From assembly GCF_963921235.1 (NCBI RefSeq), contig NC_086097.1:103728001-103792000 (forward strand): 64,000 bases of DNA. The letters run 5' to 3'. The notes under the pieces were generated by a model that worked only from the letters and a program-made list of their open reading frames with translations, did no database searches and was not told the DNA's origin. The translations under genes and the position numbers were made by a program. This DNA is from Mobula hypostoma. Lineage: Eukaryota. Positions 2,930 to 56,879 of this stretch are shown here, in pieces. The first letter of the stretch is position 1; every line of letters begins with the position of its first letter.

Positions 2930-5495
2930 TCATTTTGGAGAAAAGGCCAAGGTTATTCTTGTAAGACATGCTCCCCAATCAGGCAATATCCTTGTAAATC
3001 TCCTCTGCAGCCTTTCTATAGTTTCCACATTCTTCCTGCAGTGAGGTGACCAGAACTGAGCATAATACTCCAAGTGGGGACTGACCAGGGTCCTATATAG
3101 CTGGAACATTACCTCTTGGCTCTTAAACTCAATCCCACAGTTGATGAAAGCCAATGCATTGTATGCCTTCTTAACCACACAGTCAACCTGCGCAGATTCT
3201 TTGAGTGTCCTTTGGACTCGGACCCCAAGATACCTCTGATCCTCCACACTGCCAACAGTCTTACCATTAATACTATACTCCGCCATCATATTTCACCTAC
3301 CAAAATGAACCATCTCACACTTATCTGGGTTGAACTCCATCTGCCACTTATCAGTCCAGTTTTGCATCCTATCAATGTCCCATTGAAACCTCTGACAGCC
3401 CTCCACACTATCCACAACACCCCCAACCTTTGTGTCATCAGCAAATTTGCTAACCTATCCCTCCACTTCCTCATCCAGGTCATTTATAAAAATCACAAAG
3501 AGTAGGGGGTCCCAGAACAGATTCCTAAGGCACACCACTGGTCACCAGCCTCCATGCAGAATATGACCTGTCTACAACCACTCTTTGCTTTCTGTGGGCA
3601 AGCCAATTCTGGATCCACAAAGCAATGTCCCCATAGATCCCATGCCTCCTTACTTACTCAATAAGCTTTACATGGGGTACCTTATCAAATGCCTTGCTGA
3701 AATCCATATAGACTACATTTACAGCTCTACCTTCATCAACATGTTTAGTCACATCCTCAAAAAATTCAATCAGGCTCGTAAGGCACGACCTGCTTTTGAC
3801 AAGGCCATGCTGACCATTCCTAATCATATTATGCCTCTCCAAATGTTCATAAATCCTGCCTCTCAGGATCTTTTCCATCAATTTACCCACCAGTGAAGTA
3901 AGACCCACTGATCTATGATTTCCTGGGCTATCTCCACTCCCTTTCTTGAATAAGGGAACAACATCTTCCAATCCTCTGAAACCTCTCCCATCCCCATTGA
4001 TGATGCAAAGATCATTGCCAGAAGCTCAGTAATCTCTTCCCTCGCCTCCCACAGTAGCCTGGGATACATTTCATCCTGTCCCAGCGACTTATCCAACTTG
4101 ATGCTTTCCAAAAGCTCCAGCACATCCTCTTTCTTAATGTCTATATGTTCAAGCTTTTCAACACACTGTAAGTCATCCCTACAATGCCAAGCAACACACA
4201 TAAAAGTTGCTGGTGAACGCAGCAGGCCAGGCAGCATCTCTAGGAAGAGGTACAGTCGACGTTTTGGGCCGAGACCCTTCGTCAGGATCTCGGATTTCCT
4301 CGTGTTTGTGCCTACAATGCCATAGTGAATACTGAAGCAACGTATTCATTAAGTACCTCTGCTATCTCCTCCGGTTCCATACACACTGTTCCACTGTCAC
4401 ACTTGATTGGTCCTGTTCTCTCACATCTTATCCTCTTGTTTTTCACATACTTGTAGAATGCCTGGTGGTCTTCCTTAATCCTGCTCGCCAAGGCCTTCTC
4501 ATGTCCCCCTTTGGCTCTCCTAATTTAATTCTTATGCTCCTTCCTGCTAGTCTTATAATCTTCTAGATCTTTATCATTACCTAGTTTTTTGAACCTTTCG
4601 TAAGCTTTTCTTTTCTTCTTGACTAGATTTATAACAGACTTTGTACACCATGCTTCCTGTACCCTACCATCCTTTCCCTGTCTCATTGGAATGTACCTAT
4701 GCAGAACGCTACACAAATATTCCCTGTACATTTGCCACATTTCTGCTATACATTTCCCTGAGAACATCTGCTCCCTAATTATGCTTCCAAGTTCCTGCCT
4801 GATAGCTTCATATTTCCCCTTACTCCAATTAAACACTTTTCTAACTTGTCTGTTCCATCCCTCTCCAATGCCATGGTAAAGGAGATAGAACTGTGATCAC
4901 TACCTCCAAAATGCTATCCAACTGACAAACCTGTCACCTGACTAGGTTCATTTCCCAATACCAGATCAAGTACAGCTTCGCCTCTTGTAGTCTTATCTAC
5001 ATATTGTGTCAGGAAACCTTCCTGAACATACCTAACAAACTCCACCCCACCTAAACCCCTTGCTCTAGGGAGATGCCAATCAATATTTGGGAATTTTAAA
5101 TCTCCCATCACGACAACCCTGTTATTATCACACCTTTCCAGAATCTGTCTCCCTATCTGCTCCTCGATGTCCCTGTTACTATTGGGTGGTCTATATAAAA
5201 AAAAACACCCAGCAGAGTTATTGACCCCTTCCTATTCCTAACTTCCACCCACAGAGACTCCATAGACAACCCCTCCATGACGTCCTCCTTTTCTGCAGCT
5301 GTGACACTCTCTCTGGTCAACAGTGCCACACTCTTTTGCCTCCCTCTATATCCTTTCTGAAACATCTAAAGCCTGACACTTGAAGTAGTTGTTTCTGCCC
5401 CTGCACTATCCAAGCCACAACATCATAGCTCCAAGTGCTAATACATGCTCTATGCTCATCCGCTTTATTCATAATACTCCTCGCATTAAAATAAA
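2930..5495 (-). mobile_element. CR1 LINE fragment (APE to RT), decayed, interrupted by a Penelope-derived insertion
   Basis: Minus-strand ORFs with YMDFSKAFDKVPH, RSCLTSLIEFFE and GEAVLDLVLGNEP motifs. Confidence 0.85.
4190..4310. mobile_element. Penelope-derived short insertion with inverted arm; hammerhead core mutated (GAAA to AAAA)
   Basis: 12-bp TSD CCTACAATGCCA at 4178-4189 and 4311-4322; same sequence family as 21104, 41892 and 54995; minus-strand CTGACGA...AAAACGTC at 4258-4285. Confidence 0.8.
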
Positions 5496-16503: not shown

Positions 16504-16795
16504 TGTGACAAGAATACACATAGATTAAGATGTTAGCTGTCCTGTGGAATCAGCAGTTGGTCTGCCACCTGTCTTCAGGAGAGAGAGAGATAAGGAAAAC
16601 AATGGAGCAGCATGTGGAGATGTTAATGAAGGAAGGAGAGCTGTCAAGAGCAGCTCCCCCTTTGAACCTTGAACTGTTTGAAGTGATGGACAGGCGATAC
16701 CCCAGCAGGGGGATAAAAAGGGACAGGCAGGACACACATGACACCCGAGGTAACGAGACCCTGGAAGCAGTGCGCCTCTCACGAGTCGGTGGGAA
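16504..16795 (+). repeat. 5' LTR, truncated (distal LTR, PBS and gag start deleted)
   Basis: First ~220 bp match 19470 onward with 5 substitutions by eye; similarity ends near GTCGGTGGGA (~16793), where gag sequence starts directly. Confidence 0.85.
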
Positions 16796-18341
16796 ACTCC
16801 TCGAGCTGGATAAGTTAAAGATAAGGGCAGAGCAGGGGCTCGTGCCGAACCAAGGTGGAGGGTTCCGGGCAACCCAGGAGGTTAGGCTGGTTCCCCCATT
16901 TGACGATACCGATGTGGATCAGTACTTTCTCCACTTCGAAAAAGTGGCTATAAGTCAGGACTGGCCGAGGGATAAGTGGGTTGTTTTGCTTCAGAGTGTA
17001 CTGAAAGGGAAAACCCAACAAGCTTACTCAGCTTTGTCCGTGGAAGATGCCCAGAGGTATGAGGTGGTGAAAGAGGCCATCCTCAGGATTTATGAGTTGG
17101 TCCCGGAGGCATACTGGCAGAGGTTCCGGAATGCGAGGAAGCAGTGGGACCGCACGTATTTGGAGTTTGCCCGTGAGATGCAGACATATTGTGAGCATTG
17201 GTGCGCCTCAAAGGGGGTAGAGGGGGATTATGACAGACTGCTACAGCTGATCCTGATTGAGCAGTTTAAAGGTTGTGTCCCTGAGGGTATGAGACCCTAC
17301 CTCGATGAGAAAGAGGCAGACACGTTAGCCACAACTGCTAAGTTAGCGGATGAGTATGCGTTGACGCATAAAATGAAGTTTGCCCCGAGTAAAGGCTACA
17401 AGAAGGGTAGTCAGGACGGCGGGGAGAGTCCGCCGGAAAAGTCAGAAAGTAAGCCGGGGACTAGTGAGAAGGATAAGGTAGACCGGGAGCAGTCTGGTAG
17501 GAAGTCTCCTGGGATCGTCTGCTATAATTGCGGGAAAGTCGGACACTTTGCGTCCAGGTGCTTTGCCCCAAAGAAGGAGACGGGAAAAGGAAAAATGGCA
17601 ATTTTGACTGGCTGTATCGAGCTGGTACACGAATCGCTAGGGAAGGACAGGTCTGCCAAAGTTCAGGAAGGGTGCAAGAAGTTTATCTCGGCCGGATTGA
17701 TGTCAGTGAAGGAGGGGTTAAAACCAGTTCCAGTGCGGATCTGGAGAGACACAGGAGCGTGTCAGTCACTAATACTGAAGAGTGTATTAGAGTTTAGCTC
17801 AGAGACCCAGACTGGGGAGGTAGAGGTCAAAGGTGTTGGGGAAGGGACAGAGTCAGTCCCTTTACACCAGATACACTTACAAAGCAACCTGGTCTCTGGA
17901 CTAGTCACGATCGGGGTGAGGTCCGAATTACCGATGAAAGGCGTGGAAGTCTTGCTCGGTAATGACATCGCCGGGGGAATCGTGTTCCCAGTCGTGAGAT
18001 TGACAGGTCAGCCTGCCAGCACTGAGGCCCCGCCCATGGACTCACAGGTTCATCACGGGACCGCGGTAGTGAATTTAGCTGAGACGTTTCTGCCAGTGTT
18101 GTACGAGACGGGGGTAGAAAATGAAAAGAAGGAGTGTAGTGAGACAAGAGATAGTGAGGGAGCTGGGACAGACATAGCAGTAGCCAGGAAAGAATTTGTG
18201 CAGACGCAGGAGCGAGACGAGGGGCTGATGGTTTTGGCAGAGACAGCTCTCTCTGACACAGACTTAACAAGGGAACTAGTAGGCTATTGTGCGGAGGAGG
18301 AAGTGCTAAGGAAGAAAATCAAGTACAGTACCCGCAGATGA
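16530..18341 (+). CDS. gag: Retrotransposon Gag-protease ORF (SCAN-like capsid, CCHC zinc knuckle, aspartic protease) with an LTR-derived N-terminus
   Basis: 603-aa uninterrupted ORF with YELVPEAYWQRFR...LILIEQFK (SCAN-like), CYNCGKVGHFASRC (17520-17561) and WRDTGACQSL (DTG at 17748-17756). Confidence 0.85.
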   Translation: MLAVLWNQQLVCHLSSGEREIRKTMEQHVEMLMKEGELSRAAPPLNLELFEVMDRRYPSRGIKRDRQDTHDTRGNETLEAVRLSRVGGKLLELDKLKIRAEQGLVPNQGGGFRATQEVRLVPPFDDTDVDQYFLHFEKVAISQDWPRDKWVVLLQSVLKGKTQQAYSALSVEDAQRYEVVKEAILRIYELVPEAYWQRFRNARKQWDRTYLEFAREMQTYCEHWCASKGVEGDYDRLLQLILIEQFKGCVPEGMRPYLDEKEADTLATTAKLADEYALTHKMKFAPSKGYKKGSQDGGESPPEKSESKPGTSEKDKVDREQSGRKSPGIVCYNCGKVGHFASRCFAPKKETGKGKMAILTGCIELVHESLGKDRSAKVQEGCKKFISAGLMSVKEGLKPVPVRIWRDTGACQSLILKSVLEFSSETQTGEVEVKGVGEGTESVPLHQIHLQSNLVSGLVTIGVRSELPMKGVEVLLGNDIAGGIVFPVVRLTGQPASTEAPPMDSQVHHGTAVVNLAETFLPVLYETGVENEKKECSETRDSEGAGTDIAVARKEFVQTQERDEGLMVLAETALSDTDLTRELVGYCAEEEVLRKKIKYSTRR

Positions 18342-20189: not shown

Positions 20190-21555
20190 GCTATATGTGC
20201 ACTTGCTTCCCAAAGGAAATGAGGGATCACTTCGTTAGGCCCTGGGGATTTATCCACCCTGATTTACCTCAAGACAGCAAACACCTCCTCCTCGAGTCCA
20301 AGTTGATGTAATTTTGCCTTTACTTTTATACACTCCATTCCTGTCTCCTGAGTAAATACATATTTAAAATCTCCCCATCTGCTTTGGCTTCATACATGGA
20401 TTACCATTCTGATCTTCCAGAGGACCAATTTTGTCCCTCGCAATCTTTATGCTCTTAACATATTTGCAGGATCCCTTAGGATTCTCCTTCACTTTGTCTG
20501 TTAGGGCAATTTCATGCCTCCTTTTAGCCCTCCCAATTTCTCTCTTAAGTGTTCTCTGCTGTTTCTTATACTCCATAAGCACCTCATTTGTTCCTACCTG
20601 CCTATACTGCTATGCAGCTATTTTTTTCTCTTAACCAGGGGCTCAATATCTCTTGAAAACCAAGGTTCTCCACACTTGTTATTCTGATAGTTGTACTCTC
20701 AAAATTTCACCTTTGAAGGCCTCCCACTTAACAAGTACACCTTTGCCAGAAAACAGCCCATCTCAATCCACACTTGCCAGATAATTTCTGATACCATCAA
20801 AAGTGGCCCCTCTCCAATTTAGAACCTCCAATCACAGACCAGACCTATATTTTTGCATATTTACTTTGAAACTAGCGGCATTGTGATCACTTACTGCAAA
20901 GTGCTCCCCTACACAAACTTCTACCATCTACTCTGTCTCATTCCCGATCAAGTGTCACAGACTATCTTGTTGGGACTCCCTTGTACTGATTAAAGAAGCT
21001 TCCCTGAACACTCTTGACAAACTCTATCTCATCTAGCCCTTTTACAGTGTGGGAGTCCCAGTCAATATGTAGAAAGTCAAAATCACCACCTATAACAACC
21101 TCAGGAATTCTGCAGATGCTGGAAATTCAAGCAACACACATCAAAGTTGCTGGTGAACGCAGCAGGCCAGGGAGCATCTCTAGGATGCATCTTCCTAGAG
21201 ATGCTGCCTGGCCTGCTGCGTTCACCAGCAACTTTGATGTGTGTTACCTATAACAACCTCATATTTCTTGCAACAGTCTGTGATCTCTCTACAAATTTGT
21301 TCCTCTAAATCCCAGGGTGGCTGTAATATAGCCCCATTAACGTGGTCATGGCTTTATTTCTCAGTTCCACCCATAACACTTCACTAGATGAGTTCTCCAG
21401 TTGGTCCTGATAAAGCAATACTATGATATTTTCCCTGACTAGTAACACTACCCCTTCCACTTAATCCTTTCCACTCTGTCCCATCTAAAACAAAGGAACC
21501 CTGGAACACTGAGCTGCCAGTCCTGCCCCTCCTGCCACCAGGTCTCACTAATGAC
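20190..21555 (-). mobile_element. CR1 LINE fragment (APE/linker region)
   Basis: ORF 20364-20582 (REIGRAKRRHE...VKENPKG...KIGPLEDQ); interrupted at 21104. Confidence 0.8.
21104..21245. mobile_element. Penelope-derived fold-back insertion (ribozyme segment absent)
   Basis: TSD ACCTATAACAACCTCA at 21088-21103 and 21246-21261; 53-bp inverted arms 21133-21185 and 21193-21245 with 1 mismatch. Confidence 0.85.
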
Positions 21556-26115: not shown

Positions 26116-26129
26116 TCAATTTGCACAAT

Positions 26130-26857
26130 CACAACACGCTGGAAGAACTCAGCAGGTCGGGCAGCATCCGTGGAAACAATCAATCAACGTTTCCGGCCAG
26201 AACCCTTCGTCAGGACTGAAGAGGGAAGGGGCAGAGGCCCTATAAAGAAGGTGGGGGAGAGTGGGAAGGAGAAGGCTGGTAACCCGACGTAGATTGCAGG
26301 ACTGCTTCGTTGAGTACCTCCGCTCTGTCCGCCACAACAGACAGGATCTCCTGGTTGCCACCCACTTCAACTCTGCTTTACATTTCCATTTGGATATGTC
26401 CATACGGATATGTCCATACATGGCCTCCTCTACTGCCATGATGAGGCTACCAAGGGGCTGGAGACTACCAAGACAGTATATGAGGTGTTGCTCCTCCAAC
26501 CTGAGTTTAGCCTCATCATGGCAGTAGAGGAGGCCATGTATGGACATATCCGAATGGGAATGTGAAGCAGAGTTGAAGTGGGTGGCAACCGGGAGATCCT
26601 GTCTGTTGCGGTGGACGGAATGGAGGTGCTCAACGAAGCGGTCCCCCAATCTGTGTTGAGTTACCAGCCTTCTCCTTCCCACCCACCCCGCACCTTCTTT
26701 ATAGGACTTCTGCCCCTTCCCTCTTCAGTCCTGATTAAGGGTTCCAGCCCGAAACGTTGACTGATCGTTTCCACAGATGCTGCCAGACCTGCTGAGTTCC
26801 TCCAGCGTGTTGTGAGTGTTGCTTTGACCCCAGCATCTGCAGAGTATTTTGTGTTTA
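26130..26857. mobile_element. Penelope-derived ~730-bp fold-back insertion with GIY-YIG C-terminal fragments and two degenerate hammerhead motifs
   Basis: 13-bp TSD CAATTTGCACAAT at 26117-26129 and 26858-26870; RLGDRFVEHL...PVATHFNS-like peptide on both strands; terminal arms inverted. Confidence 0.85.
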
Positions 26858-31923: not shown

Positions 31924-32913
31924 ATGCCAGGCAGGATGTTAGAATGCTCCTCTTGCAGGATGTGGGAAGTCAGGGAGCCCTCCGGTGTCCCTGACAACGA
32001 CACCTGCAAGAAGTGCATCCAGCTGCAGCTCCTAACAAACCGCGTTAGGGAACTGGAGCAGGAGCTGGATGACCTGCGGATCATTCGGGAGAATGAGGAG
32101 TTTATAGATAGTAGCTACAGGGAGGTAGTTACGCCAAAGGAGCAGAGGACAGGAAATTGGGTCACTGTCAGATGAGGGAAGAGGAAATGGCAGACAGAGC
32201 AGGGTTCCCCTGTGGCCATTCCCCTCAACAACAAGTATACCGCATTGGATACTGTTGGGGGGGATGACTTACCTGGGACAAGCTGCAGTAGCCGGATCTC
32301 TGGCACTGAGTCTGGCTCTGCAGTGCAGAAGGGAGGGTGGAAAAAGAGGAGAGCAGTAGTGATAGGGGACTCGATAGTTAGAGGTACAGATAGGAGGTTC
32401 TGTGGTCGTGACAGAGAATCCAGGATGGTTTGTTGCCTCCCGGGTGCCAGGGTCAAGGATGTCTCTGATCGATTGCATGACATTCTGAAGTGGGAGGGTG
32501 ATCAGCCAGATGTCATGGTGCATATCGGTACCAATGACATAGCAAGGAAGTGTGAGGAGGTCCTGGAGAGTGAGTATAGGGAGCTTGGTAGGAAGTTGAA
32601 AAGCAGGACCTCGAGGGTGGTAATCTCAGGATTGCTACCTGTGCTAGGTGCCAGTGAGGGTAAGAATAGGATGCTCTGGAGGATGAACAAGTGGCTGAGG
32701 AACTGGTGTAGGGGGCAGGGTTTCAGATTTCAGGATCATTGGGACCTCTTCTGGGGCAGGTGGGACCTGTACAAGAGATACGGGTTACACTTGAACTACA
32801 GGGGGACCAATATCCTTTCAGGGAGGTTTGTTAGTGCTGTTGGGGAGGCTTTAAACTGGATTTGCAGGGGGATGGGAACCAGAGTGCCAGAGCTGACAGT
32901 GTGGCTGGGGTGA
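31924..32913 (+). pseudogene. CR1 ORF1p: zinc finger and coiled coil plus SGNH esterase, one premature stop
   Basis: CSSC..CKKC, LTNRVRELEQELDDL, GDSIVR, HIGTNDI, GLHLN; ORFs 31897-32175 and 32212-32913 are in the same frame, separated by TGA at 32173-32175. Confidence 0.88.
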
Positions 32914-35784
32914 AAATAAATGATGTTAAAAGTTCAAGCAAATCCGCTAATAGAAAGGTTGTGAGTGGTGGTAAAAATCTTCTGAGGTGTATATATTTCA
33001 ATGCTAGGAGTATTGCGGGGAAGGCGGATGAGTTGAGGGCGTTGATTGACACGTGGAATTATGACGTTATAGCAATTAGTGAAACTTGGCTACAGGAGGG
33101 GCAGGACTGGCAGCTTAATATTCCAGGGTTCCGATGTTTCAATGTGATCGAGGCAGAGGCATGAAAGGCGGGGGAGTAGCATTGCTTGTTAGGGAAAATA
33201 TCACAGCAGTGCTCAAGCAGGACAGATTAGAGGGCTTGTCTACTGAGTCCTTATGGGTGGAGCTGAGAAACAGGAAAGGTATGGCCACATTAGTGGGATT
33301 GTATTACAGACCACCCAATAGTCAACGAGAATTGGAAGAGCAAATCTGCAGAGAGATAGCAGGCAACTGCAGGAAACATAAAGTTGTGGTGGTAGGGGAT
33401 TTTAATTTTCTATATATTGATTGGGACTCCCATACTGTTAGGGGTCTAGATGGTTTACAGTTTGTAAAATGTGTTCAGGAAAGTTTTCTAAATCAATATA
33501 TAGAGGGACCAGCTAGAGGGGATGCAATATTGGTTCTCCTATTAGGAAACGAGTTAGAACAAGTGACGGAAGTCTGTGTAGGGGAGCACTTTGGTTCCAG
33601 TGATCATAACACCATTAGTTTCAACTTGATCATGGACAAGGATAGATCTGGTCCTAGGGTTGAGGTTCTTAACTGGAAGAAGGTCAAATTTGAAGAAATG
33701 AGAAAGGATCTAAAAAGCGTGGATTGGGACAGGTTGTTCTCTGGCAGGGATGTGATCGGTAGGTGGGAAGCCTTCAAAGCAGAAATTTTGAGAGTGCAGA
33801 ATTTGTATGTTCCTGTCAGGATTAAAGGCAAGGTGAATAGGAATAAGGAACCTTGGTTCTCAAGGGATATTGCAACTCTGATAAAGAAGAAGAGGGAGTT
33901 GTATGACATGTATAGGAAGCAGGGAGTAAATAAGGTGCTTGAGGAGTATAAGAAGTGCAAGAAAATACTTAAAGAAATCAGGAGGGCTAAAAGAGGACAT
34001 GACGTTGCCTTGGCAGTCAAAGTGAAGGATAATCCAAAGAGCTTTTACAGGTATATTAAGAACAAAAGGATTGTAAAGGATAAAATTGGTCCTCTTGAAG
34101 ATCAGAGTGGTCGGCTATGTGCGGAACCAAAGGAAATGGGGGCGATTTTAAATAGGTTTTTTGCATCTGTATTTACTAAGGAAACTGGCATGAAGTCTAT
34201 GGAATTAAGGGAAACAAGTAGTGAGATCATGGAAACTGTACAGATCGAAAAGGAGGTGGTCCTTGCTGTCTTGAGGAAAATTAAAGTGGATAAATCCCTG
34301 GGACCTGCCAGGGTGTTCCCTCGGACCTTGAAGGAGACTAGTGTTGAAATTGCAGGGGCCCTGGCAGAAATATTTAAAATGTCGCTGTCTGCAGGTGAGG
34401 TGCCGGAGGATTGGAGAGTGGCTCATGTTGTTCCGTTGTTTAAAAAAGGATCGAAAAGTAATCCAGGAAATTACAGGCCAGTAAGTTTAACGTCAGTAGT
34501 AGGTAAGTTATTGGAGGGAGTACTAAGAGACAGAAGCTACAAGCGTTTGGATAGACAGGGACTTATTAGGGAGAGTCAACATGGCTTTGTGCGTGGTAGG
34601 TCATGTTTGACCAATCTATTGGAGTTTTTCGAGGAGGTTACCAGGAAAGTGGATGAAGGTAAGGCAGTGGATATTGTCTACATGGACTTCAGTAAGGCCT
34701 TTGACAAGGTCCCGCATGGGAGGTTAGTTAGGAAAATTCAGTCACTAGGTATACATGGAGAGGTGGTAAATTGGATCAGACATTGGCTCGATGGAAGAAG
34801 CCAAAGAGTGGTAGTAGAGAATTGCTTCTCCTAGTGAAGGCCTGTGACTACTGGTGTGCCACAGGGATCAGTGCTGGGTCCATTGTTATTTGTCATCTAT
34901 ATCAATATCTGGATGATAATGTGGTAAATTGGATCAGCAAATTTGCTGATGATACAAAGATTGGAGGTGTAGTAGACAGTGAGGAAGGTTTTCAGAGCCT
35001 GCAGAGGGACTTGGACCAGCTGGAAAAATGGGCTGAAAAATGGCAGATGGAGTTTAATACAGACAAGTGTGAGGTATTGCACATTGGAAGGACAAACCAA
35101 GGTAGAACATACAGGGTTAATGGTAAGGCACTGAAGAGTGCAGTGGAACAGAGGGATCTGGGAATACAGATACAAAATTCCCTAAAAGTAGCATCACAGG
35201 TAGATAGGGTTGTAAAGAGAGCTTTTGGTACACTGGCCTTTATTAATCAAAGTATTGAGTATAAGAGCTGGAATGTTATGATGAGGTTGTATAAGGCATT
35301 GGTGAGGCCAAATCTGGAGTATCGTGTTCAGTTTTGGTCACCAAAAACAGGAAGGATATTAATAAGGTTAAAAGAGTGCAGAGAAGGTTTACAAGGATGT
35401 TGCTGGGACTTGAGAAACTCAGCTACAGAGAAGGGTTGAATAGGTTAGGACTTTATTCCCTGGAGCGTAGAAGAATGAGGGGAGATTTGATAGAGGTATA
35501 TAAAATTATGATGGGTATAGATAGAGTGAATGCAAGCAGGCTTTTTCCACTGAGGCAAGGGGAGAAAAAAAACCAGAGGACATGGGTTAAGGGTGAGGGG
35601 GGAAAAGTTTAAAGGGAACATTGGGGGGGGCTTCTTCACACAGAGAGTGGTGGGAGTATGGAATGAGCTGCCAGACGAGGTGGTAAATGCGGGTTCTTTT
35701 TTAACATTTAAGAATAAATTGGACAGATACATGGATGGGAGGTGTATGGAGGGATATGGTCCGTGTGCAGGTGAGTGGGACTAG
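32850..35784 (+). pseudogene. CR1 ORF2p: APE endonuclease and reverse transcriptase, with several frameshifts and stops
   Basis: YFNARS, ISETWL, VGDFN, SDHN, YMDFSKAFDKVPH, GVPQGSVLGP, KFADDTK; breaks near 33140, 34832-34837, 34905, 35345 and 35570. Confidence 0.9.
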
Positions 35785-37339: not shown

Positions 37340-37860
37340 ACTTCAAGTTTATTGTCATACAACCATATACATGTATACCACCAAATGAAACTACATCCCT
37401 CTGGACCAAGGTGCACAACACAGTACATACAACTCACACACAAAGTAATATCATCACAAATAAAATTTAAAAAGTTAAGATTGACAACAGAAGTTAAAAT
37501 ATAAACAGTATAATGCCATTGACACATCATACGCGATGAGACCTGGGCAGTAGGAAGGAGGTCAGTATTTTTACAGCCTGAGGAAGAAGCTGCTTCCCAT
37601 CCTAACATTCCTTGTCCTACTGCTACAGTACTTCCTGTCTTATGGTGCGGGGGGGGGGGGTCAAAGAGATTGTTGGACAGATGTGAGGTATCCTTGACAA
37701 TGCCAAGGACTTTGCGTACAAAGTGCTACTTATAAATATCTCAGATGGGTGGAAGAGATGATCCTCTCAACAGTCCTCAATCCTTTGTAGGATCTTTTTT
37801 GTCAGATGTCCAGCAATTCCCATATCAGACAGTGATGCAGCTGGTCAGGACACTCCTTTA
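37340..37860 (-). mobile_element. Rex1/Babar 3' fragment
   Basis: Similar to 24350-24920 and 54760-55500. Confidence 0.6.
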
Positions 37861-41891: not shown

Positions 41892-42049
41892 ACTCACTCT
41901 TCCTTCAGTTAGTCCTGACGAAGGGTCTCGGCCTGAAACGTCGACTGCGCTTCTTCCTATAGATGCTGCCTGGCCTGCTGCGTTTACCAGCAACTTTGAT
42001 GTATGTTGCTTGAATTTCCAGCATCTGCAGAATTCCTGTTGTTTGCGTT
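41892..42049 (+). mobile_element. Young Penelope-derived terminal fragment, no inverted arm
   Basis: 12-bp TSD CCAATTCCTTTT at 41880-41891 and 42050-42061. Confidence 0.82.
41911..41946 (+). ncRNA. Minimal type I hammerhead ribozyme motif
   Basis: AGTC-CTGACGA-AGGGTCTCGGCCT-GAAAC-GTC-GACT: stem I AGUC/GACU, intact core, GUC cleavage triplet, no stem III loop. Confidence 0.7.
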
Positions 42050-53545: not shown

Positions 53546-55096
53546 ATTACAAAATGCTGCGGGGATCAAAGGCCTACTGAGAAAGGAAAATGATATTGAT
53601 ACAGAAGATCAGCATGATCCTGATTAACGGTAGATCAGACTCTTAATTTTTAGGTTGTTAGGGCAGATATACCTGTGCATTCTAGAGTACATCAAAACTC
53701 TGAACACTTTACACTGGGATGAAGAAATCTGTGTGAAAATCACCTTCGTGACACAGGAGTCAACATTTGGCCCATCAGAGCTATGCCAGCTCAGGAAACA
53801 TCCTCATTCCCCCACCCACTCCATTACAACACATTTTGTTATAAATGTTGGCATTAGAAGCAATTGCAAGCATAGCATGATAAAGCAAACAAATGTTAAC
53901 CACATGGCCTGTAAGCAGTGTAGCTCTGTGGCAACCCTAGCCCCAGCCTATATACTCCATGTCTTATCCAACCCCTCCCCACCCCATGCTCTGCAACTTA
54001 ATTTAGCTTTTCTCATTAGCAGATCTGATCTGAGAAGTTAACTAAGAATTTTACTCCACAGGTGATGTTTCCAGAATCTTGTTTTCAAATTAAGGTTACC
54101 AGGTTACTGATTTCCTTTCTTTGGTGTGCTCCTGGGTAACTTTGGTCTGCTCTGAATTCTATGTAAGTTCTAGTTAAGGATTCCTCCTGTGCAGAATCAC
54201 AAGGGCAATACCCAAACCTTAAAATGTTAGTTATACAGTTTCCACCAAATACCAATGGTTAAATACTTCTCAAGCAAGTTGCTCCAGTTTTCAAGATTTA
54301 ATTCCTATCAGATGATATTGGTATACAGGAGACACAGAGGGACGGCCAAAAGCATTGTAACTCTCAATATTAGTAACCACAAAGCACAAACATAAATATT
54401 CACTCCTACACCTCTGACAACTTGTTTGTGGACTTTTTATAGAAGCACAGGGTAAGTGCCCAAAAGAAAAAATGAAATTAAGGGGGAGAAAAGGAAGGGG
54501 GTGGAGCATGTAACCACAAAGTAGTAATGACAGCACCTCTACTTCCTTAGAAGTTGGCGTTGATCTGGCATGTCACCCAAAACTTTGACAAAATTATACA
54601 GATGCGCAGTGGAGAGTAACAGGTTGCATCATGGCCTGGAATGGAAACACTAATGACCAGGGATGAAGTAGTCTATAGACAGTGGTAGATACAAGCCCAG
54701 TAAATCAAAGGCAAGGCCCTTACCATCACTGAGCACATTCAGAAGGGGTGCTGCCACAAGTTCAAATTCAAATTTATGGTCCTTGAACTATACTCCAAAT
54801 GAAACAACACTCCTCTTGAGCTGGGTGCACAGCATAGTACATAAACACACAAGTAATACCACCACAAATAAATTAACAAATAATAAGGTACACAAGCTAA
54901 AAAAATAAACAGTGTAATCTTGCTGCCGCTTCATACGTAATAAGACCTGGATGATAGCATGGCCTGAGGGGAAAGCTGTTTCCTATCTTAACAGCATATA
55001 CACGAAGAAATCTGCAGATGCTGGAAATTCAAGCAACACACATCAAAGTTGCTGGTGAACGCAGCAGGCCAGGCAGCATCTCTAGGAAGAGGTACA

Positions 55097-55130
55097 GTCG
55101 ACGTTTCGGGTCGAGACCCTTCGTCAGGAC
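55097..55130 (-). ncRNA. Minimal hammerhead ribozyme motif (minus strand)
   Basis: GTC-CTGACGA-A-GGGT-CTCG-ACCC-GAAAC-GTC-GAC; stem I only 3 bp. Confidence 0.6.
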
Positions 55131-55138
55131 CCTTCGTT

Positions 55139-55174
55139 AGTCCTGACGAAGGGTCTCGGCCCGAAACGTCGACT
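55139..55174 (+). ncRNA. Minimal hammerhead ribozyme motif (plus strand)
   Basis: AGTC-CTGACGA-A-GGGT-CTCG-GCCC-GAAAC-GTC-GACT; predicted cleavage after 55170. Confidence 0.7.
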
Positions 55175-56879
55175 GTACCTCTTCCTAGAGATGCTGTCTG
55201 GCCTGCTGCGTTCACCAGCAACTTTGATGTGTGTTCCTATCTTAACAGTCCATGTGCTAATGCTATGGTACCTCTTGCCTGATAGTAGGGGGTTAGAGAT
55301 GGTTGAACAGATGTGAGGGATCATTGACGATACTAAGGGCTCTGCATACACAGTACTCTGCATAAATATCTCTGATGGGTGGAAAAGAGATCCCATGGGT
55401 TCTTCCAATCCTTTGTAGGAACTTGCAGTCAAATGCCTTGTAATTCCATATCAGACAGTGATGTAGCTGGTCAGGATACTCTCAAGGTGCTCCTGTAAAA
55501 ATTTGTTAGAATGGGAGAGGGAGTGAGCCGAGCTCATCTCAATCACCTCAGGAAGTGGAGACACTGCTTTCTTAACCAAAGAGGTGGTGTTGAGTGACCT
55601 GGAGAGGACGTCTGCTATGTGCACACCCAGAAACTTGATGCTCCTAACTCAACATGGTGTTTATGGTCAGCCTGCACCTTTCTAAAGTCCACTATCATCT
55701 CAATGTCTGCATTGAGACAAGTCAAGAAAGCAGCATCCATACCCACCCAGGCTATGCTCTCTTCTCACTAATTCCATCAAATCAGAGGCACAGCAGCCTG
55801 AGATGCCACACCACCAGGTTCAGGAACAGTTATTACCCAATAAGCATCAAGCTCCTGAAATGGCATGGATAACTTCTTTCAGCACAACTCTGAACTGATT
55901 CCACAACGTACAGACTCACAAGGACACTGCAGATCATGTTTTTAATATTATTTAAGTATTTCTTGCAGTTTGCCTTCTTTCGCATATTGTTTGTCAGTCT
56001 TTATGAATAGTTTTTCATAAATTATATGGTATTTCTTTATTTTCCTGTAAATGCCTGCAAGAAAATGAAATTAAGGTAGTATATGGCAAATAGGACATAG
56101 TACAGTACAGGCCCTTCAGCCTACAAAATTGTGACAACCTTTTAACCTACAACGATCAATTTAATCCTTCCCTCTACATAGCAATCCACTTTTTTTCATC
56201 CATATCTAAGGGTCTCTTTAACATCCTGAATGTATCTGCCTCCACCACCACCCTCAGTAGTGCATTCCACACACTTACCATGAAACTTGAGTTCATGAAA
56301 TTTAAGGAAGTACCAAATACTACCTAGAATTGCAGCGACAGTGCTTGTTGATGACACTCAGAATGTAAAATGAAAACTTCCTGTGCGTGTGAGCCTTTTG
56401 CCCCCTGGAGTCTGTGCTTCCATTCAAGAAGAACATGGCTGATTGAATCTTGGTCTCAGTTGCATTTTCCATCCTGTTCCCTTTATCTCATTAACATCTA
56501 AACTTCTATTTTTATATTATAACTCTAGAGCAGAAGTAGGCCACTTGTACAACAAATTACTCTCACTTTGAAGGACTACTCCACTGTTTCTCTCACACCC
56601 CAAGGATAATGCTAGTAGGTTAAAGATTTCCTCATTTGGGAATATGTCTTCATTATGAGTATACTGTATATTTGTGGGTTTGACTCCTTTCCCCCAGCTT
56701 CACTGCCTACACTGCAGCAATTTGCCAAATCAAAGCACTCAGTATCCACATTCAACTCTTTGCTCAGTGAAGCTGTTCACTCATCCCCAGACTGAACTAA
56801 AGTGGAAGTGTATGGGGAAATTTCCGTAAGGAATTGAGAACAGTGAGCCAATGAAAGGGCAGAGAGATCAGAATTGCCT

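Follow-up and report, generated by a model that had tools for sequence, protein, structure and literature searches.

Head-to-head ends of a young Penelope-like retrotransposon form a hammerhead-bearing hairpin in Mobula hypostoma

We identified a hairpin insertion in a 64,000-nt stretch of the Mobula hypostoma genome (the window) whose two arms derive from a young Penelope-like element (PLE) and correspond to its 3′ ends (pLTRs). Intact copies of this element encode a reverse transcriptase (RT) and a GIY-YIG domain. The locus is a doubly truncated insertion, with two pLTR ends head to head in one TSD. It most likely arose from nicks on both target strands, with one cDNA per nick at start sites ~35 nt apart, followed by repair joining. 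The locus is genuine yet unremarkable, a stub whose retrotransposon class and layout are both known, and both of its hammerheads are passengers. As one of roughly 100,000 young insertions it matters little by itself. The statistics of the whole family, by contrast, bear on how PLEs form inverted ends and on what their hammerhead does.

The insertion and its parent element

The insertion comprises the following features:

54980..54994, no strand: left TSD copy, 15 bp, inside an older host repeat (sequence comparison; empty paralogous site)
54995..55034, minus strand: one-sided tail, which in intact copies runs on into the start of the long ORF (tail as defined in PMC8557442 and PMC11167929)
55035..55130, minus strand: left pLTR arm, element sense on the minus strand, putative cDNA from the distal start site
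55097..55130, minus strand: minimal hammerhead motif of type I, with cleavage predicted between 55100 and 55099
55131..55139, no strand: junction
55140..55235, plus strand: right pLTR arm without tail, putative cDNA from the proximal start site
55140..55173, plus strand: minimal hammerhead motif of type I, with cleavage predicted after 55170
55234..55248, no strand: right TSD copy, 15 bp, its first 2 nt overlapping the arm end

The original prediction described a TSD-flanked insertion of 241 bp with 96-nt hairpin arms and two mismatches, and mapping of the arms and TSD copies bears this out. The arms enclose a 9-nt loop and differ at 55111/55159 and 55073/55197. The insertion breaks an older host repeat. 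A paralogue of this repeat (~37490-37765) aligns uninterrupted over the insertion site with a single TSD copy, and seven BLAST matches span the empty junction. Two parts of the layout had been overlooked: the one-sided tail, whose first few bases differ from the reference copy, and the origin of the arms as the 3′ end of a coding element. At the junction, 55128-55137 is an exact 10-nt repeat of 55115-55124, and 55136-55139 are native upstream bases of the right arm. The repeat and the native stretch have 2 nt in common. A 10-nt repeat with a 2-nt overlap is what slippage and microhomology joining would be expected to leave.

In the 3.48-Gb genome, the best 40 loci by score all match nearly the full hairpin, and in stretches sampled at round coordinates the same arm terminates longer elements. 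At one unselected locus (L046), an inverted pair spans 2.9 kb, has a 14-bp TSD and contains a frame of 441 aa, which covers the RT C-terminus and a terminal GIY-YIG. Among 150 scored matches to this frame, four have 1043-aa open frames. The fetched copies are tandem or pLTR-flanked with a unit of ~3515 bp, and the window arm matches the pLTRs of two tandems (L196 and L200) at 92-94%.

The 1043-aa frame of L197 matches RVT_1 with E=4e-5 and also GIY-YIG, with E=2e-4, although neither match reaches the Pfam cut-off. Its translation contains DKG, YIDD, a CX4CX2C linker ahead of the C-terminal GIY-YIG, and two cysteines between GIY and YIG. Among 8000 candidates scored, 334 homologues reached E<=1e-30, and most of the 120 listed carry RVT_1. 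The closest named protein among the matches listed is from the shark Chiloscyllium punctatum (72% identity), which makes a cartilaginous fish the likely host. A CX2-5CxxC zinc finger in the RT-EN linker is described for Neptune and Nematis and as absent in Penelope/Poseidon (PMC8557442). The CX4CX2C linker thus excludes Penelope/Poseidon, and the predicted parent protein fits an EN+ PLE of the Neptune or Nematis type.

We identified 54 young insertions in 1.664 Mb (48 in 1.464 Mb and 6 in 0.2 Mb), which extrapolates to ~100,000 genome-wide, from samples that are not strictly random and include 164 kb of the window and its neighbours. The window also contains a hairpin that turns near +40 without a hammerhead, from the same or an older Penelope-like family (21103-21245), an older Penelope-like hairpin with arms of ~350 bp (26125-26857), a Penelope-like arm plus a short inverted tail piece (4188-4310) and a lone tailed Penelope-like arm (41912-42045). 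Other elements include a gag-like frame of 605 aa that carries SCAN and zinc-knuckle domains (16524-18341, plus strand) and a LINE with pieces of a GDSL-esterase ORF1 and an APE-RT ORF2 (32176-35439, plus strand).

Insertion layout and a hotspot of turns

Element positions are numbered from the first G of the 5′ strand of hammerhead stem I (position 0), and the scissile bond follows +30. Head-to-head pairs account for 23 of 48 clusters. Of 21 simple pairs, read by eye and including the focal pair, 20 have one tailed and one tail-less arm; the other two pairs (L055 and L157) are one three-piece locus and one cut by the locus edge. A one-arm tail is also found in both held-out pairs and in all 13 hairpins that have the focal junction. 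Of 17 pairs, 14 have TSDs of 12-16 bp. Arms vary continuously in length, between ~40 bp and more than 1.1 kb. Their 3′ ends show a bimodal distribution, at about +92 to +105 and +123 to +143, the two groups lying ~35 nt apart.

This layout is already published, including the inverted truncated copy, the one-sided 35-40-nt tail, the single TSD and the occurrence of hammerheads as opposite-strand pairs. The published PLE insertion layout is an inverted 5′-truncated copy with a 30-40-bp tail at one end and a TSD (PMC8557442, PMC3846280). Canonical EN+ PLE insertions have the same head-to-head pLTRs in a single TSD (PMC8557442, Fig. 2 legend; Adineta Pen2a, PMC3846280), and likewise a one-sided tail overlapping the ORF start and junction palindromes (PMC8557442, PMC3846280). 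The focal insertion differs in that both copies are reduced to about 100-135 bp and lack an ORF. TSDs are also longer in the focal family, at 12-16 bp against 8-10 bp given for Adineta (PMC3846280).

Arm 5′ ends cluster immediately 5′ of the hammerhead and inside it. Among unselected arms that reach +75 at their 3′ end, 7/67 terminate in +21..+65. In the interval -24..+20, 30/59 arms terminate (28/57 without the focal pair), compared with 1/28 in the following 180 nt. A small held-out set (200 kb) gave 2/6 arm ends in the hotspot and 0/4 in the following 180 nt.

Genome-wide, exact flanking 16-mers identified at least 1,254 hairpins that turn within 30 nt of the hammerhead 5′ edge, against 82,964 single 16-mers (1.51 per 100). 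The corresponding rates are 0.40 per 100 at +42 (514/129,937), 0.031 at -77 (19/61,344) and 0.030 at -337 (18/60,075). Turns are thus enriched ~50-fold just 5′ of the hammerhead relative to the two upstream controls, whose 16-mers may count older subfamilies too. The hotspot is ~40 nt wide with no sharp end, and it is seen for single arms as well as for pairs. It does not feature in the descriptions of canonical PLE insertions consulted in PMC8557442 and PMC3846280. Among the open-literature papers listed on Penelope twin and both-strand priming, on shark or ray Penelope, and on pLTR starts or strong-stop, none concerned this hotspot.

By eye, 12 of the first 50 listed hairpins, turning in +12..+41, are centred on the scissile bond and five on the adjacent ACGT. 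Since the site is a 6-bp palindrome, microhomology alone could explain these turns. We also considered a branch-point block of RT, in view of a polypyrimidine tract with AG at -4/0; no consensus splice donor was found by eye in -320..0, and this candidate was down-weighted. Contigs of five sequencing runs aligned to L197 and L196 showed no splice-type joint at the hammerhead among the joints listed.

Formation of the inverted pair

We propose that the element's enzyme would nick both target strands and that each nick would prime one cDNA, the two starting at sites ~35 nt apart. The cDNAs would stop on reaching the RNA 5′ end, ~0-25 nt upstream of the uncleaved hammerhead, and repair would join the two short cDNAs by microhomology or slippage. 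The observed parts of this model are the parentage, the layout, the one-sided tail, the varied junctions, the turn pile-up and a core that decays no more slowly than its neighbours. Arms that overlap, as here, require two templates or strand displacement.

Several of the proposed steps have counterparts in Anolis Poseidon (PAc). The PAc protein cleaves and extends both target strands in vitro, initiates reverse transcription at two positions that bound the tail, and copies mainly uncleaved RNA (PMC11167929). It is predicted to be a dimer, and hammerhead cleavage needs the protein (PMC11167929). The focal family would have the same two tail-delimiting start sites, extension on both strands and an uncleaved template, its priming being deduced from arm ends. 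PAc belongs to a different clade, Penelope/Poseidon, and its ORF begins inside the hammerhead (PMC11167929), whereas the focal family has the linker zinc finger and an ORF start ~90-170 nt downstream. The PAc experiments described in PMC11167929 do not include a demonstration of two-cDNA joining.

Because most cDNAs passed the scissile bond, they must have been copied from RNA still uncleaved at that point. The simplest reading of the hotspot, and possibly its cause, is run-off where the RNA would start, near -25..0; alternatively, it may reflect stalling of the RT or annealing at a predicted imperfect palindrome. We tentatively suggest, as an idea with somewhat less than even prospects, that 'double strong-stop' events give rise to the shortest Penelope hairpins. 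An enzyme acting as a dimer would use the 5′ pLTR of the RNA as template for priming from both target strands, and each cDNA would end by run-off at the RNA start, a short distance upstream of the uncleaved hammerhead. If so, thousands of junctions would constitute a genomic map of the 5′ end of the element RNA, and the smaller peak would possibly record RNAs cut by the ribozyme in vivo. The ~50-fold hotspot predicts the position of the RNA start and implies mostly uncleaved insertion templates. These predictions are testable because the family is young and has intact ORFs.

A different route, which we consider unlikely, would have one target-primed cDNA fold back at the imperfect palindrome by the hammerhead 5′ edge, copy itself to within ~35 nt of its own start, and there become linked to the opposite end of the target. 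Arkhipova et al. ascribe such junction palindromes to self-priming (PMC3846280), and the imperfect palindromic stem predicted across about -16..+13 would favour fold-back or annealing at the hotspot. Some junctions are symmetric, and alleles are common to both arms, as fold-back would produce. However, the right arm has native upstream bases (55136-55139) that are missing from the left arm, and in several pairs (e.g. L045, L075 and L195) the arm without a tail greatly exceeds the tailed one in length. That single arms have the same hotspot also argues against fold-back, as does the clustering of tail-less ends at a fixed element position, like the start sites in PMC11167929.

Less probable still is a non-autonomous unit of the MITE or retrozyme kind, with the entire hairpin being transcribed and inserted again, although the original prediction had regarded it as mobile. 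The TSD and at least 1,254 similar hairpins are consistent with such a unit, as are 13 hairpins with exactly the focal junction. Those 13 nevertheless represent about 1% of the 1,254, and junctions varied among the first 50 hairpins listed. The tail is on the left in eight of the 13 and on the right in five, and their subfamily alleles differ between copies while mostly agreeing between the arms of one copy; across hairpins, site +22 agrees between arms in 26/29 (p=2e-5). The mixed tail sides and differing allele backgrounds indicate that the focal junction recurs independently. The continuous range of arm lengths and the absence of tandem monomers also stand against a mobile unit. Neither the fixed unit nor the head-to-tail tandem of a non-autonomous hairpin or retrozyme was found, and the 13 same-junction copies largely refute that candidate. 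The hairpin was thus likely made anew at each insertion by two-sided priming and joining. Four of the 13 lie inside 33 Mb of contig C1 (82.7-115.7 Mb, L202-L205), a grouping that a mobile unit might produce; these four differ in alleles and tail sides, and the clustering was spotted post hoc and is possibly due to chance.

L1 twin priming generates inversions through priming at both nicks and microhomology joining, as proposed here for the focal hairpin. L1 inversions use non-overlapping parts of one RNA, whereas at the focal locus the same 96 nt were copied twice. A non-overlapping minority class is represented by two loci (L064:4630-5392 and L141:2723-4013). In these the second arm is tail only (about +92/+99 to +138) and ends where the long tail-less arm starts, as if one RNA primed both cDNAs. 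Non-LTR retrozymes are likewise non-coding, pLTR-related and equipped with a type-I hammerhead, but they are described as head-to-tail tandems (bioRxiv 10.64898/2026.07.22.740005), in contrast to the focal hairpin, whose arms lie head to head and which does not propagate as a unit. Folding predictions for L197:2698-2912 give a stem-loop at ~+70..+102, with the proximal start site on its loop and 3′ side, and pairing of the tail with pLTR sequence further upstream.

The hammerhead motif, its predicted folding and its decay

Both strands carry CUGACGA-A-4-bp stem II-GAAACGUC with stem I formed by GUC/GAC. This matches the minimal PLE hammerhead layout of CUGANGA, an extra base, stem II, GAAA, palindromic 15.2/16.2 and UH, closed by stem I. 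The sequence of each strand therefore contains a minimal hammerhead of the Penelope type, including the extra A and the palindrome ACGU, as originally proposed. A regular expression for the motif found 55 matches in 1.664 Mb and none in three mononucleotide shuffles. Rfam searches of the window yielded no match at the gathering threshold, which is uninformative for minimal hammerhead variants, and at E<=10 the only matches were sub-threshold ones to generic hairpin (miRNA) and snoRNA families, none of them to a hammerhead. In metazoan PLEs, minimal hammerheads, which are described as depending on dimer formation, similarly lack helix III, have palindromic 15.2/16.2 and an extra base after A9, and occur mostly as solo copies (PMC4209133). 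Schistosoma 'dual min-HHRs' on opposite strands, ~100-700 bp apart, were already known (PMC4209133); the focal motifs start only 9 nt apart, and the focal stem II has 4 bp.

The 96-bp near-perfect duplex has a predicted RNA fold of -214.5 kcal/mol (z = -28.7 against 200 shuffles). Forcing the hammerhead stems in the modelled read-through RNA of either strand costs 50-52 kcal/mol, and stem-pair probabilities of the sense ribozyme in that RNA are <1e-16. The proposed sequestration of the sense ribozyme by its antisense arm is thus predicted as well: the sense hammerhead would be locked inside the hairpin in read-through RNA, as a by-product. A modelled double hammerhead, at -17.9 kcal/mol, lies far above the cofold minimum of -35.3 kcal/mol.

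This duplex, the two intact focal cores and the predicted sequestration are what might be expected if the host retained the copy or the class as a self-inhibiting ribozyme switch or a Dicer/ADAR substrate, an explanation to which we give very little weight. In 88 unselected arms, non-CpG changes are no rarer in the core (9/614, 1.5%) than elsewhere (91/5185, 1.8%; p=0.74), and CpG changes give a similar result (28/301 vs 21/172; p=0.35). Adding 58 query-selected arms gives 12/1130 vs 148/9094 (p=0.16), a slight trend toward conservation in a test of limited power that weak constraint could escape. Excess conservation of the core across genomic copies was thus not found, and self-inhibition as a maintained function is not supported. 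Because 42/65 full arms keep an intact core, the intact core at the focal locus is expected from youth alone. Arms diverge by 4.1% within a hairpin and by 5.1% between hairpins, which also speaks against retention.

The arm difference in stem II does keep the pairing, as had been noted, but selection on it is not supported, since the change is private to the focal locus (0/76 unselected and 0/58 selected other arms, 0/134 in all), and a compensatory reading was rejected. The 27 motif types listed (55 motifs, mostly from one young family) vary in loop II and in the cleavage triplet, with no clear double change. At +22 (C11.1), the G10.1-C11.1 pair, which PMC4209133 calls highly conserved, is G-U in 82/135 arms, including copies with intact ORFs (e.g. 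L196 and L197).
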